Source: Plasmodiophora brassicae (taxonomy: Eukaryota). From it: DNA of 64,000 nucleotides. Below are positions 21,590-27,635 of the stretch, piece by piece; position 1 is the stretch's first letter; each line of letters begins with the position of its first letter. The notes beneath the pieces are model-generated. The model saw only the letters and a list, made by a program, of their open reading frames with translations. It did not search any database and was not told the DNA's origin. The DNA lies in contig CP145421.1 of NCBI GenBank assembly GCA_036867785.1, positions 992,001 to 1,056,000 on the forward strand, in the 5' to 3' direction. A program made the position numbers and the translations under genes.

Positions 21590-24382
21590 TCAACCACACG
21601 GATTGACCGACTGAGGTCGGTCCGCGCCGTGGACGTTTATTGTACCTAGTGCGCTACGAAGGAGCCCAATTTGGTGCCGGCTGAGTCGCCAACACGACTC
21701 AGTCGTGACATAATAATCCCCTTCTAGCCGCACCGGGAACGGGCTGCGGGCTTGTCTGGGTTGAAGCATTTGGTGAGGCCTAGCAAGAACTGCTTCATCA
21801 TTAGGCGACAGTGTGTACTCCAGTCGACGAGTCAGGGCGTCAGGTGTCCAATGAACGAAATCAACTTCGCTAAGGAATTGGGGTGAACGAATCTGTCGTC
21901 GATGTAGCTTGTGGGCAAACGCACGTGCGGCGGCGTCCAGAAACATGAGATCGTGGTTGAGAAACGCGATCGAGGTTGATGAGGCCTGGTCATCCTCTAA
22001 CGTAGCAAAAGGTGCAAAGAAGGACTCGGCGGGCGCATTCAAGGGCGGGGGCTCCGCAGAGGCGCTCGTACACAGCTGTGCTATTGGAAAATACGGCCAC
22101 CCAACTAGGATCCAGGCCAGGGCGACAAAGGTTGCGAACATCAGAAGATTGAGGCTGTGGCCGTCTCGGAAGCCATCATTGGAGGGGGGCGGCGGGAGAG
22201 ACCGTTTCACCCTTCGTCGAACGGGGCCCCAGTTCCGGAAGGAGGACATAAGGGGCGTGGACTCGGAGCCTGAACGGGGCAATGATAAGAGATCGGTGCG
22301 GCTGGTGGCAACAGTATCATTGAAGGCGGCGACCCCCGGGATACCATAATCGAAAGCGGAAGGACTCGGCCTGTCGTCGACGGCAGCAGTGGCAATGTGG
22401 CACTCCGGGTGGTCGTCATTAGCTACGGAAGCCAGCTTGCCGTCGACAAACACGGATGTAAGCGGCAACGTTTCGAGTGATTCAGCTGAAGGGATGGCAC
22501 ACGCAGGCGCAGGAACGCTTCGTGCAGGAGGTGAGACCCCAGCTGAGAGACTATCCTCGCGCTTTACTGTTGCAAATGGTCCCGCCGAAGAGACGAAGGA
22601 CCCAGACCCATGGACGTCTCCTGTTCCCGCCGAAGAGACGAAGGACCCAGACTCATGGACGTCTCCTGTACGGATCCCCACGAGGGTATCTCCGCGGCGC
22701 TGTAGGCGGCGCTGACGCCAATCGATATCTGGGTTTGTATCCGCCAACCAAGGCAGCCCAAGAATGACAGGGTGTTGAGGCGAGTGGATCATGTTCAGGA
22801 CGACGTCGCTGTCGAAACATCCGTCGACGGTAGCACGTAGCGGGACGGTTTCCTGAGTTACTGGAGACAGGTGTCGCCCGTCGATGACGCGAACAGGAAT
22901 GGCACGCGATTTAGAGCGAACCGGTATTTCGTGGTGACGACAGAACGACCAGTCGATGAAGTTGGAAGTCGCACCACAGTCTAACAGGGCGAATGTGTTG
23001 ACACGGCGTGAGCCGATAACGAGGCATACCGATACCAACAGATGCGGTATTGAGGGAGACGTCATAAGGAACAGATCAGTGACGTGGAGAGGGTTGCCGG
23101 TCCGCTCGGGACACAGCGATGAGCGGTGGCCAACCTTATGACAGTGCGGGCACGGTGGCCTCTTCGGGCAGGACGCAATAAAATGCCCAACTTCGCGACA
23201 ATAGTGGCAAGCCAGGGGTTGTGTCCTTGCATCACCGCCAGCGTTGATGGCGGCGATTGGGTATTTCGACTCAAGATGAGCCGCCATCTCGAGAATTTTG
23301 TCGTAGTCTCTGAAGTTGTACAAGAACAGCGCTTCGGAGAGCGCAGGGTTCAGCGAGAGGCGGAACTTTTCCGCCAAGCGGGCCGGATTGAGTCTGTACA
23401 ATGGGTCAAGTCGTTGAAGGTCCTTGTACAAGCGTTGGAATGCCAGTGCGTGGTGAGCGACACCTGCAGTCTGCTTCAGGTTGTCAAACTTCGCTTCAAC
23501 CTGCTTGAACGAAGGTCCCGGGAAGTCATGGAGCAGGACGGACGAAACGTCCGCCATAGACGCGTCCGCAGGCAAGTCGAGGTAAGTCTCAAGAGCCTGA
23601 CCTTGCAAGGCTGTCGTTAAGACACATTGCACTTCGCCGGATAGAGGACTTGTTGACGTTAACGACGTCTGGGTGATCCGAGAGAACGCAGTCAACCAGC
23701 GCGTCGTCGACAGACCATCGCTTCCCGAAAAACGCGGAATGTCTTGTGACTGGACAACAATAGACGTTAAGGGTGGGCCCGGAGACACCCGTGGCGCCGG
23801 CACCCGAGCCCCAACGAACGAAGCGCCAATATGCTGCGACGTTGGGGAGACAGGGTCATGCCGAGGCGCGCCGCCGGGGTCCTGCAGAGACGTCGAGGCG
23901 GCAGAAACGTGTAGGGACGATAAGGCAGGCGGGGAGTGACGGTCCGAAGAGGACAGAGAGTCGTCGGCCCAATCGGCAGCGGTACTAGTGAGCGAAGGCG
24001 GGGTGAGCGGTCGTGCAGGGAGATGATTCGCCAGTGGCCGAACACCCGCGCGAAGTGCAGCTGCGACAGGGGACCGAGAGCAAAATCCGACGCACCCGCA
24101 ACATCCGGATTCGCGGACGATGGGACGTCGTCGTCCGTCAATGACGGAATCGACCCATCGCCTCCTGCCATGAATGCAATACAATACCAACGATAGAAGC
24201 GGTACGGCACGATACGATACGGCACAATACGATACGATACGGCACAATACGATACGATAAGGCAAAATACGATTCGATACGGCACAATACGATACGATAC
24301 GGCACAAAACGATACGGTACGGCACAATACGATACGAGTCGAGACAAGACGATACGATACGGCACAAAACGAGTCGAGACAA
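21590..24382 (-). CDS. Gag (capsid + two CCHC knuckles) - aspartic protease polyprotein; no RT or integrase; start uncertain
   Basis: IPRFSG gag start; knuckles CHYCREVGHFIASC and CPHCHKVGHRSSLC; protease ALLDCGATSNFI..VILGLPWL..NPDIDW; RNase-H-tail-like remnant RRQIR..FLSEVDF..PDALTRR. Confidence 0.8.
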   Translation of the reverse strand: MSRLVLCRIVSSCLDSYRIVPYRIVLCRIVSYCAVSNRILPYRIVLCRIVSYCAVSYRAVPLLSLVLYCIHGRRRWVDSVIDGRRRPIVRESGCCGCVGFCSRSPVAAALRAGVRPLANHLPARPLTPPSLTSTAADWADDSLSSSDRHSPPALSSLHVSAASTSLQDPGGAPRHDPVSPTSQHIGASFVGARVPAPRVSPGPPLTSIVVQSQDIPRFSGSDGLSTTRWLTAFSRITQTSLTSTSPLSGEVQCVLTTALQGQALETYLDLPADASMADVSSVLLHDFPGPSFKQVEAKFDNLKQTAGVAHHALAFQRLYKDLQRLDPLYRLNPARLAEKFRLSLNPALSEALFLYNFRDYDKILEMAAHLESKYPIAAINAGGDARTQPLACHYCREVGHFIASCPKRPPCPHCHKVGHRSSLCPERTGNPLHVTDLFLMTSPSIPHLLVSVCLVIGSRRVNTFALLDCGATSNFIDWSFCRHHEIPVRSKSRAIPVRVIDGRHLSPVTQETVPLRATVDGCFDSDVVLNMIHSPQHPVILGLPWLADTNPDIDWRQRRLQRRGDTLVGIRTGDVHESGSFVSSAGTGDVHGSGSFVSSAGPFATVKREDSLSAGVSPPARSVPAPACAIPSAESLETLPLTSVFVDGKLASVANDDHPECHIATAAVDDRPSPSAFDYGIPGVAAFNDTVATSRTDLLSLPRSGSESTPLMSSFRNWGPVRRRVKRSLPPPPSNDGFRDGHSLNLLMFATFVALAWILVGWPYFPIAQLCTSASAEPPPLNAPAESFFAPFATLEDDQASSTSIAFLNHDLMFLDAAARAFAHKLHRRQIRSPQFLSEVDFVHWTPDALTRRLEYTLSPNDEAVLARPHQMLQPRQARSPFPVRLEGDYYVTTESCWRLSRHQIGLLRSALGTINVHGADRPQSVNPCG
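22580..22669. repeat. 45-bp in-frame tandem duplication in the LTR element ORF
   Basis: Encodes TGDVH(E/G)SGSFVSSAG twice. Confidence 0.9.
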
Positions 24383-24385
24383 GAC
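24199..24385. repeat. 20-bp minisatellite GGCACAATACGATACGATAC in the 5' leader of the LTR element
   Basis: About 9 tandem units built from GATAC pentamers. Confidence 0.9.
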
Positions 24386-24620
24386 GACGACAGAAGGTTA
24401 GTCGGTCAAAATGTGACGACCGAACACGATGAGTCAACCACACGGATTGACCGACTGAGGTCGGTCCGCGCCGTGGACGTTTATTGTACCTAGTGCGCTA
24501 CGAAGGAGCCCAATTTGGTGCCGGCTGAGTCGCCAACACGACTCAGTCGTGACAATCTGGCCCTGCTCATCAACGAAACTGCACTTCGAAGTGATTGTTT
24601 ACGGCAACATAGTAACAATG

Positions 24621-27600
24621 TTACGAGGGTTGCTGGGCGCGGCGAATGGCATCCAACAGAGTGGCCTTCGTCATCACGCTATAGTCGCCTGATATGCCGC
24701 AGTCCCTGGCAATTCGTCGCAAAGCCCGCAACGGCAGGCTGCCATAGTCGCGATGGGCAGGAACGACAAACGGCCACGCACTGCGAATGGTCTCCTCGTT
24801 GTATGGCCCTCGATCACAAGCGGCGCTCGGCTGCAGGGCCTCCTGCTCTTCTTCTTTCCCGCGCAGGAACGTCTCGTAGTTTGGACGACAGTCTAAAAGG
24901 ACGCGTAACGCATCGCGGACGTTGTCGGGCAGGCAGCGACTCCCCAACCCTTCGATGCGAAGTATGGGCTGACCATTCCGCAGTGTCGCGACCTCGGCGG
25001 ACGGTCTGACGTTGTCGACATTCATGAAGATGAGAATGGACTTGCGGTCTAGCTCCTGCAACAGCTCCGTGTCGAAACACCCGTTTAGGGCTGTGCTCGG
25101 CGTCATCTTATCCTTGACCGTTTTCGAAAACGCAGATCCAGAGCAGGCCTTCACTTGAATTCCAACCACACCAAACGAATCGGAAGGACTCGGCGCAGCT
25201 TCCATCTGTGGCTCGCCGCCCAGTGCACCACCTTGTGCGCCGCAAGACTCAGACGGCAGGAACGCGGGCCCAAACAGATCCCACCCGGGAAACGCTTCAG
25301 GCAGCGCGCAGAAACAGTGGCGTTCTGCAAGCTGGACATGCGTCCGCAGGTCCGGCTTGAACGCCAGGTTCACGAACTGGCCGCAACCGATCATGGCGCC
25401 GCGCATCTGAGGCGGGACGGCTTCCTCCGCCAACCTGACTGAGGAAGCCGACGGCAGCAACTGTACTAGCACGTCGACGACGTCGACGACCGATCCATAA
25501 CGTTTGCCTGCAGCAGTGCATGCTCGATCGCAGGCAAAAAGGAACAGAGTCTGAGCAATTACCTCGCCGATGAAGCCCTCGTTTAGAGCGCCAGACAGGA
25601 TAGAGTCATGCACCGCTGGAATTATTGCATCGGAGAACGTGCTACCGTCTTCTTCGTGCCACTTGTGTGCCGCTGCACGCGCTACCATGGCTTCGGGCAT
25701 AAACGATATGAGGCATTGTTCGCGATCGAGGTCGGTGTCAAGCAACGTGCCCATGAACCCGGCAACAAGTGCAGACGCGAACGGATGGCTTGGGTACACC
25801 ATTGCGGCAACGCGCGAGAGAAACAGCGCAAGATTAGCAAGACGACCGGCACCAGAGCCGCTCTTTGAAACCGAATTTCCACCGCCGGCGAGCTTGAGTT
25901 GCAGAAACTCGAGCGACTCTTGTTCCCGTAGGCGCCTCGCAATGCTTAAACCGGCGCGTCCCGTTTTCAGCCAATCATCAGAGATCCGTAGGCGGCTCCA
26001 GTCGACATGCTTGAGATCAGTCGACGCAGATGCGAAATGGACGTCGAACGACCCACGGAGGACAATGGGCTGGAAGAGCTCGGGTCCTTTGCAGGCGTCA
26101 CGAAACACACTAGATGGGCGTGCCGAGGGTTCCCGATGTTGAGCAGGGCTGAAGTTCTGAATTGGAGAAGACGTGTCGATGAACACAAGGAAAATAGAGA
26201 TGCGGATAGCGTTGTTCTTCAAGAAATCGTCACACAAGAGGGCCGCATGCCGGACGCACCGGAACAGATTGACGCCGGAGATGCTCTGGGTCAGCAGCTG
26301 ACGAGCTTCGTCCATTACGACCAGGACAATTTCCGGAGAGCTGTTTCGTAAGTCCTTGAGCTGATCGTCGCTGAGATGCGTTTCAGGCAGGTTACTGAAC
26401 ATAACTTCACTGATGCTCTGGCTAGGGAATTCTGCCTGATGTTGCAGATCGTCCCGGCGGTTGTTGCTTTGAGCAGGATCAGGCAGATGCTTCACGGCCC
26501 TGTAGACGAGCTGACCAAGCCTATAGGATAGGACTCTGGAAAATCTCTTCGGAGTGGAACCTTCCAACGAGTACCCTTTGAGAAGGGTGCCGATGGCCAT
26601 ATCCGTCCGGTCGGGATAGCCGGTCGATCCAGATTTGCGAAAACAGAAGTAGACTGTCCGGAAATGGTGGCGCGCCAGTTCGCGGAACGTGCGTGATTTG
26701 CCATTCAATGTCGATTGCACGCAGGAAGTATAAGGTGACATAAACGGACGATGTTGCGCGCGATACGCTGCCGAACACTGTCGAATATAAGTAGCAATTG
26801 AACTCAGGCAGTCGTGCGGATCCACGAACGGTGTGGTGAAATCGTCCGCAAGAACGTCTCTCTCCGGATACGCAGATGCAGCAGCAGTATTAGCGGACAC
26901 CGTTTGGGGATGGAGAGCGTGGTAGAGTGAACCGAGGAACTCCTCCGAAGGTCGCTTATTGAAAAGTACCTTGAGGCTGTGGGAGTCTAAACCAAGCAGG
27001 GTATCGCCATAGAATGGACGATCATTCAATGTTAAAGACTGATCGTGCGCGCGAATGAAACGATGCAAGTACCGCCGGACGGTATCAGGCGTTGACTGCT
27101 CAGTTATTGCCAACTCGTCATCGTCAGGGTGAAGAGCATCGTAGAGCGACTGGGTAATCGACTGAACGTGAGGGTCGTCACCCGGTCCGTTGAACAGAAC
27201 ACGAAGCTGGTCGCGTGACAACCGAAGCAAATCGAAGCCGTCATACTTCGAAGCACGCGCAGAGAGCGGCACCGGCACATCGGCCCTGGCAACGAATCGT
27301 TGCAGGAATTCGCTGACGGCAGCGGCTGTCGATTCGTCGGTGATAGTATACTCCTCCTGGTCGACCTCCATCGCCAACCTCGCAACGCGCAACGGACTGC
27401 CGACCGCACAATGTCCGTCAGCTGTACTGCAGCTGCTCAGTTCATACTGGGGAAACGCTCGGTCCGCCAGCTGGCTATGTACAGTATACGATTTTGTCGA
27501 ATCGATTTGGGCCTGGTATCGCAAGCCAAATATTAGCTGGTTCGTAAAGCGATTGCAACATGTTGACTTACCGATATCGACTCGCCCAAATGCAATACCA

Positions 27601-27635
27601 ATTCTGCGTGTACCTGGCAGGCTGTCAAGACCCAT
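24621..27635 (-). CDS. Crinkler (CRN/CR)-type protein: tandem SAM-like headers, P-loop NTPase, PD-(D/E)xK-like nuclease, C-terminal Rho-N/HEH-like motif
   Basis: Two repeats ITxxST..V..L.RF..G..LL.L..LY.ALHP. Walker A-like SPYTSCVQSTLNGKSR, Walker B VVMDEAR, nuclease-like FPGWDL..GIQVK, tail LRALRRIARDCGISGDYSVMTKATLLDAI. True start may be the ATG at 27371. Confidence 0.7.
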   Translation of the reverse strand: MGLDSLPGTRRIGIAFGRVDIGKSTCCNRFTNQLIFGLRYQAQIDSTKSYTVHSQLADRAFPQYELSSCSTADGHCAVGSPLRVARLAMEVDQEEYTITDESTAAAVSEFLQRFVARADVPVPLSARASKYDGFDLLRLSRDQLRVLFNGPGDDPHVQSITQSLYDALHPDDDELAITEQSTPDTVRRYLHRFIRAHDQSLTLNDRPFYGDTLLGLDSHSLKVLFNKRPSEEFLGSLYHALHPQTVSANTAAASAYPERDVLADDFTTPFVDPHDCLSSIATYIRQCSAAYRAQHRPFMSPYTSCVQSTLNGKSRTFRELARHHFRTVYFCFRKSGSTGYPDRTDMAIGTLLKGYSLEGSTPKRFSRVLSYRLGQLVYRAVKHLPDPAQSNNRRDDLQHQAEFPSQSISEVMFSNLPETHLSDDQLKDLRNSSPEIVLVVMDEARQLLTQSISGVNLFRCVRHAALLCDDFLKNNAIRISIFLVFIDTSSPIQNFSPAQHREPSARPSSVFRDACKGPELFQPIVLRGSFDVHFASASTDLKHVDWSRLRISDDWLKTGRAGLSIARRLREQESLEFLQLKLAGGGNSVSKSGSGAGRLANLALFLSRVAAMVYPSHPFASALVAGFMGTLLDTDLDREQCLISFMPEAMVARAAAHKWHEEDGSTFSDAIIPAVHDSILSGALNEGFIGEVIAQTLFLFACDRACTAAGKRYGSVVDVVDVLVQLLPSASSVRLAEEAVPPQMRGAMIGCGQFVNLAFKPDLRTHVQLAERHCFCALPEAFPGWDLFGPAFLPSESCGAQGGALGGEPQMEAAPSPSDSFGVVGIQVKACSGSAFSKTVKDKMTPSTALNGCFDTELLQELDRKSILIFMNVDNVRPSAEVATLRNGQPILRIEGLGSRCLPDNVRDALRVLLDCRPNYETFLRGKEEEQEALQPSAACDRGPYNEETIRSAWPFVVPAHRDYGSLPLRALRRIARDCGISGDYSVMTKATLLDAIRRAQQPS

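Follow-up and report, generated by a model that had tools for sequence, protein, structure and literature searches.

How does an LTR retrotransposon begin reverse transcription when no tRNA primer site follows its 5' LTR? The question is raised by an element of Plasmodiophora brassicae, which occupies 21568-24554 (2987 bp) on the minus strand of the window, the whole 64-kb stretch of DNA that was analysed. A sequence-only reading had proposed that the element is Tf1-like and self-primes, using the first bases of its own RNA paired with the primer-binding site (PBS). We consider self-priming the most likely way in which this element begins reverse transcription, a prediction held with moderate confidence. 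All features of the element are given on the minus strand.

Structure of the element, its copies and its relatives

The 5' LTR (24412-24554) and the 3' LTR (21568-21710) are 143-bp direct repeats of the form TG...CA, and they are 100% identical (143 of 143 positions). A target-site duplication, CAGAT, was read from the sequence at 24555-24559 (upstream copy) and at 21563-21567 (downstream copy), and misplaced LTR borders were ruled out since this duplication fits exactly. The polypurine tract, AGAAGGGGA, lies at 21717-21725, with TTATTA (6 nt) between the tract and the 3' LTR. An open frame for gag and an aspartic protease extends over 21590-24382, with a CCHC knuckle at about 23162-23212 and the protease at about 22706-23050. 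The Pfam scan of this frame gave RVP_2 with an E of 1.6e-4 and zf-CCHC with an E of 5.8e-3, the latter below Pfam's cut-off. Thus, the element carries the features that define a Ty3/gypsy-like LTR retrotransposon, namely direct TG..CA LTRs, a target duplication, a polypurine tract, gag and a retropepsin.

No reverse transcriptase (RT), RNase H, integrase or chromodomain was found in the element copy by the Pfam scan, and its gag matched neither Retrotrans_gag nor DUF4939. A region of about 360 aa after the protease (window 21590-22670) stands in place of pol. It matched no Pfam family, and an ESM Atlas search with 326 aa of it gave no usable match; a hydrophobic stretch, LNLLMFATFVALAWILVGW, lies within it. 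The element is a non-autonomous LTR retrotransposon with gag and protease only, because it is without reverse transcriptase, RNase H and integrase. Additionally, it appears to have moved recently, since its LTRs are identical and its target duplication is intact.

The interval between the PBS and gag is filled with leader tandem repeats of a 10/20-nt period (24180-24394), whose GTGCCGTATCGTATCGTATT-like units extend over about 200 nt. The gag-protease frame is open from the leader, and its first ATG does not come before mid-gag (window 24382-23767). The ATG at 24171 is the only one upstream of the gag domain, and it is out of frame with the gag-protease frame. The gag of this copy may not be translatable as a single protein.

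Contigs of four public sequencing runs carry the same RT-less structure. One contig of run X4 (2458 nt) spans 21683-24187; it differs from the window in 27 letters, shows 4 gaps and is shorter by one 45-nt repeat unit. The contigs enter the LTRs by 30 nt from both flanks, one letter short of the bridging rule, and in two of the four runs they leave 24341-24507 without cover. Further copies are indicated by contigs with loose ends at 21568 and 21710, where the LTR runs on into other sequence. The 45-nt tandem repeat unit lies in the open frame (window 22579-22625) and is absent from the X2 and X4 contigs, a difference that we read as repeat copy-number polymorphism. The X1 and X11 contigs agree with about the first 35 nt of the LTR and with the internal side, and then run into unrelated sequence (21673-21676, LTR about 35-38). 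Such loose ends hint that the family has a variant whose LTR body differs, and this variant may be the autonomous partner.

When 1.84 billion representatives were scanned with HMMER, 2097 matches were obtained at E<=1e-3. They include relatives with 94%, 68%, 43% and 38% protein identity, which point to related gag families. The best match (94% identity, 232 aa) and another at 43% are both hypothetical proteins of Plasmodiophora brassicae. The best long protease matches, among the matches listed, are amphibian and fish Ty3/gypsy polyproteins with 30-45% identity over the protease. Seven long matches were chosen among the 150 listed, and the integrase-bearing ones (3/3) all carry SH3_Tf2-1 and Chromo. 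A chromovirus origin is compatible with these protease relatives and not proven by them. With RT, RNase H and integrase all missing from it, the copy is not placeable by an RT-RNase H-integrase phylogeny, and the chromodomain at the integrase C-terminus that serves to recognise Tf1/sushi elements is absent as well. The label 'Tf1-like' of the sequence-only reading therefore holds for the mechanism and does not extend to descent.

Other collections added little. A word-indexed protein search gave 1 weak match, and a PDB sequence search gave zinc-knuckle matches only. Viral contigs contained 0 protein relatives and 0 matches to the LTR-end 18-mer, and metagenome contigs contained just one distant protease-RT contig (L001; 32% over 92 residues), which has no LTR. 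The 13 matches to the LTR-end 18-mer in prokaryotic genome contigs were all of 18-21 nt and were rejected as chance.

The element lies beside an 846-aa ORF (18093-20633, minus strand) with weak matches to the MULE transposase and a ZSWIM RNaseH-like family. On its other side is a 1004-aa ORF (24621-27635, minus strand) with weak matches to AAA_22, SAM_3 and Rho_N; the matches of both ORFs are below Pfam's cut-offs. The surroundings of the element may be transposon-rich. In each of the four runs, about 180 bp at 21241-21421, 150 nt past the 3' LTR, are covered by contigs whose word depth is very high, with many variants and with loose ends on both sides. This segment is probably a repeat of high copy number that has no relation to the element.

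The putative primer-binding site and its complement in the LTR

The 5' LTR terminates with ...GTCGTCACA at 24412 and is followed by TT (24411-24410) and then by the 10-mer TTGACCGACT (24409-24400), the putative PBS at an offset of 2 nt from the LTR. A 2-nt spacer after the terminal CA is the classical LTR-PBS arrangement, and the TT spacer would be the dinucleotide trimmed by integrase. The perfect complement of the PBS, AGTCGGTCAA, lies inside the LTR at 24456-24447 (LTR positions 99-108). It is the putative self-primer, with which the transcript is predicted to begin. The match spans exactly 10 nt, with no extension possible on either side, and its polarity is correct, the 3' end of the LTR 10-mer abutting the LTR side of the PBS.

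No TGG tRNA site was found for 222 nt past the 5' LTR, the first TGG being at +223, and the element thus has no canonical tRNA 3'-end site. A canonical tRNA PBS was ruled out by the missing TGG after the LTR, and a PBS further downstream was likewise ruled out, as none lies within 222 nt. On all three points, the TT with its 10-mer, the missing TGG and the exact complement inside the LTR, the sequence-only reading had been correct to the base.

How often such a match arises by chance was estimated in three ways. Dinucleotide shuffling of the LTR gave a perfect complement of at least 10 nt, starting 0-5 nt past the LTR, in 91 of 20000 cases, and shuffling of the 31 nt downstream of the LTR gave one in 24 of 20000. 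Across the window outside the element, 17 of 121564 10-mers have their reverse complement in the LTR. The PBS-LTR match is real, and chance is an unlikely source of it, at about 0.001-0.005 as estimated from a single element, a figure that is not vanishingly small. The criterion for putative self-primers of Neumann et al. 2019 asks for a region of the 5' LTR that is the complement of 10 bp or more, beginning 0-5 bp past the LTR (PMC6317226). With 10 of 10 nt at an offset of 2, the element counts as a putative self-primer in this sense.

The primer could instead come from the host as an RNA such as a 5' tRNA fragment with a D-loop like the 10-mer, in which case the complement in the LTR would be merely a structural stem enclosing U5, like retroviral U5-leader stems. 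The LTR 10-mer does resemble a D-loop stretch of the Rfam tRNA consensus, and half-tRNA primers are known for copia-type elements. However, the known half-tRNA primers, to our knowledge, end in the anticodon arm and not in the D-loop. At E<=10, none of the Rfam families, that of tRNA among them, gave a match to 24150-24600, and the sole tRNA gene of the window (Gln) has no complement of at least 5 nt to the 31 nt after the LTR. The complement also stops at 10 nt both ways, and a host primer would require the perfect LTR complement to be a coincidence of the probability estimated above (0.001-0.005). We therefore regard a host-RNA primer as unlikely.

The predicted transcript start and RNA fold, and the proposed priming scheme

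Self-priming from the 10-mer requires that the RNA begins there. The LTR contains one AT-rich 8-mer tract, TACAATAAA (24480-24488), which can be taken for a TATA-like box or a poly(A) hexamer. It lies 23 nt before the LTR 10-mer, or at -32 to -24 when counted from the predicted start. The motif CTCAGTC (24453-24459) holds the only TCAGTY initiator-like motif of the LTR, and the A of this motif, at 24456, coincides exactly with the first base of the LTR complement; over both strands of the window, 128 kb in all, TCAGTY occurs 36 times. The TATA-like tract and the initiator-like context had both been pointed out in the sequence-only reading, and both were found at the positions claimed. We assume TCAGTY as the initiator consensus, together with the TATA pattern, although they may not be those of this protist, and the promoter motifs were matched post hoc. 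The transcript start at about 24456 is thus a prediction from motif likeness alone.

The LTR is packed with short palindromes around GACTC/GAGTC. They include CACGACT-G-AGTCGTG at LTR 4-18, CGACTCAG at LTR 23-30 and TGACTCA at LTR 119-125, the last of which equals what we take to be a bZIP (AP-1/GCN4) site.

The earlier reading had missed that the same part of the LTR also resembles a poly(A) site, with AATAAA (24485-24480), CA 23-24 nt on (24457-24456) and, starting at about 24443, a GT-rich run. If this array were used as a poly(A) site, the RNA would have its 3' end at the predicted start and no R would be left, so that the RNA would end near 24456. The 10-nt match would then have arisen by chance or for structural reasons and would play no part in priming. 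The hexamer is canonical, the CA and the GT-rich run follow it, and the GACTC/GTCGG palindromes in the LTR raise the number of chance matches (91/20000 shuffles versus about 1.4e-4 per 10-mer). However, AATAAA is nearly missing from the window, with 6 sites over both strands of 64 kb, 2 of which are the LTR copies. Within 300 nt after long ORFs it was found in 2 of 48 cases, one being the LTR's own copy. Due to this rarity, AATAAA is not evidently the poly(A) signal of the host. TATAAA occurs once across both strands of the 64 kb. From these counts, the host evidently does not rely on AATAAA or TATAAA hexamers near long ORFs. The poly(A) reading would also leave an element with identical LTRs and yet no primer site at all, and we judge it quite improbable. 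Self-priming, for its part, requires a poly(A) site within roughly the final 35 nt of the LTR, where no poly(A) signal was seen.

The RNA that starts at 24456 is predicted to fold into a 10-bp primer:PBS duplex that closes a U5 stem-loop (24411-24443), which is present in both the MFE and the centroid structures. The fold has an MFE of -24.1 kcal/mol and a z of -3.55, and 0 of 200 shuffles were as stable; the duplex itself is predicted at -15.0 kcal/mol. The pairing probability of the duplex depends on where the RNA begins. It was 0.89-1.0 with 5' ends at LTR 96-100, 0.08-0.55 with 5' ends at LTR 40, 60 or 76, and 0 with 5' ends at LTR 1 or 20. In the predicted folds, U3-containing RNAs therefore mostly fail to form the primer:PBS duplex.

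This dependence on the 5' end arises because the helices compete for the same bases. One 7-nt motif is present in four copies, as GACCGAC at LTR 89-95 and in the PBS, as GTCGGTC at LTR 100-106 and as TCGGTCG at LTR 132-138. The U3 copy of GACCGAC (LTR 89-95) is predicted to pair with GTCGGTC (LTR 100-106). The resulting hairpin, GACCGAC-CTCA-GTCGGTC (24449-24466, -11.7 kcal/mol), spans the predicted U3/R border and is possible only in U3-containing RNA. It is present in the centroid fold of the RNA with the whole LTR, in which the PBS is predicted to pair instead with the U5 bases TCGGTCG.

The folds also bear on fold-back priming from an internal site, in which transcription would start further upstream in the LTR, LTR 99-108 would pair with the PBS and be cut, and the primer would keep a 5' tail; this we hold to be very unlikely, for although the chemistry requires just a 3'-OH after base 108 and no 5'-terminal position, and the duplex probability is still about 0.5 for 5' ends at LTR 40 or 76, it is 0-0.09 for 5' ends at LTR 1, 20 or 60, strand transfer still demands an R that extends past base 108, the exact fit to the initiator-like motif is left unexplained, and we know of no precedent.

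Self-priming, the preferred reading, would proceed as follows. Transcription would start at A24456 within the 5' LTR, and the RNA would fold its first 10 nt, AGUCGGUCAA, back onto the PBS 2 nt past the LTR. The RNase H of an autonomous partner would then cut after nt 10, a cut that is needed in trans because the copy has no RNase H. The freed 3'-OH would be extended through TT and U5 to give minus-strand strong-stop DNA. Plus-strand synthesis would later copy the 10-nt RNA primer and thereby rewrite the PBS. By the established scheme of reverse transcription, the PBS and the start of R would stay complementary in each generation because plus-strand synthesis copies the primer.

Besides the poly(A)-like array, the D-loop resemblance and the alternative pairing of the PBS with U5, it counts against self-priming that the polypurine tract is 6 nt off the LTR and that the copy is without its own RNase H. 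The self-priming inferred in the sequence-only reading nevertheless stands, and it has gained the complement of at least 10 bp at 0-5 bp, the shuffles, the predicted fold and the dependence of this fold on the 5' end. Its premise, a start at about 24456, continues to be motif likeness. Judged by sequence, the level of evidence equals that of most published self-priming predictions of this kind.

A more specific proposal can be made, which we put forward tentatively and consider doubtful as a whole. The element would be an RT-less gag-protease element that brings its own primer, and the four copies of the motif would form mutually exclusive helices, so that only RNAs started at the initiator expose the primer. 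The primer sequence in 3' U3-R or read-through RNA would be locked in the hairpin. Self-priming, including the RNase H cut, would be carried out wholly in trans and gated by the start site, and it would be the first such case in Rhizaria.

Comparison with known self-priming elements

Self-priming is well established in fission yeast, and sequence-based predictions of it exist for fungi, vertebrates, mosses and some copia elements of plants. Our literature search gave no report of a self-priming retrotransposon in Plasmodiophora and, among the matches listed, none for protist groups. The mechanism is a known one, predicted here in a new host group, and it is no new kind of biology. A confirmed plasmodiophorid case would broaden the known host range of self-priming. 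If confirmed, it would also mean that an RT-less derivative can have its own primer cut by the RNase H of a partner. The identity of the LTR 10-mer with the PBS complement would then serve as a simple sequence marker by which active families could be followed in a crop pathogen, whose repeats are dominated by LTR elements that mark its variable regions, according to a preprint (bioRxiv 10.64898/2026.10.14.759018).

The closest models are Tf1 and Tf2 of Schizosaccharomyces pombe, which the pertinent passages of two papers describe as self-primed Ty3/gypsy chromoviruses without a tRNA site (PMC7175516, PMC5341516). In Tf1, by the same passages, the RNA's first 11 bases form the complement of the PBS adjoining the LTR, and RNase H cuts the duplex (PMC7175516, PMC5341516). 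In Tf2, the choice of start site decides priming competence, as one of these passages states (PMC5341516). Like Tf1 and Tf2, the element has no tRNA site and an LTR-adjacent PBS complementary to its predicted RNA start; as in Tf2, the choice of start site would govern its priming competence, going by its predicted folds. Tf1 is also said to have a U5 stem-loop, going by the title of a 1998 paper by Lin and Levin, and the element has a predicted U5 stem-loop beside the duplex. In contrast to Tf1 and Tf2, its complement is 10 nt, its LTR just 143 bp and its host a rhizarian. Furthermore, with RT, RNase H, integrase and chromodomain all missing from the copy, the cut would have to be made in trans, and the whole scheme is predicted here from sequence.

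Self-primers predicted from sequence include the plant Tcn1 (Ty3/gypsy) and TAR (Ty1/copia) lineages and Cryptococcus Tcn1. The Tcn1 and TAR lineages make up 12% of the plant elements surveyed. The evidence for them is of the same kind and level as ours, the 5' LTR containing 10 bp or more that are complementary to the region 0-5 bp past it (PMC6317226). The two cases differ in host kingdom, and the Tcn1/TAR calls cover many family members, whereas ours covers one copy.

Self-priming Tf1/sushi elements fall within the chromodomain-bearing group. The element resembles the vertebrate Tf1/sushi (V-clade) chromoviruses in that its integrase-bearing protease relatives carry SH3_Tf2-1 and Chromo. 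It differs from them in a protease identity of just 30-45% and in a gag without Retrotrans_gag or DUF4939.

TRIM, LARD and gag-only derivatives are classes of non-autonomous LTR elements. Like them, the element keeps its LTRs, PBS, polypurine tract and target duplication without pol and would be mobilised in trans. It differs from them in that it retains gag, protease and about 360 aa of its own, and its predicted primer comes from its own LTR and not from the host.

Skipper of Dictyostelium is likewise a protist Ty3/gypsy element without a TGG site. The dictyostelid Skipper is described as having a polypyrimidine stretch and no complementary region inside the left LTR (PMC5006619). The element studied here has a perfect LTR complement, unlike Skipper, and it is the more orthodox case of the two.
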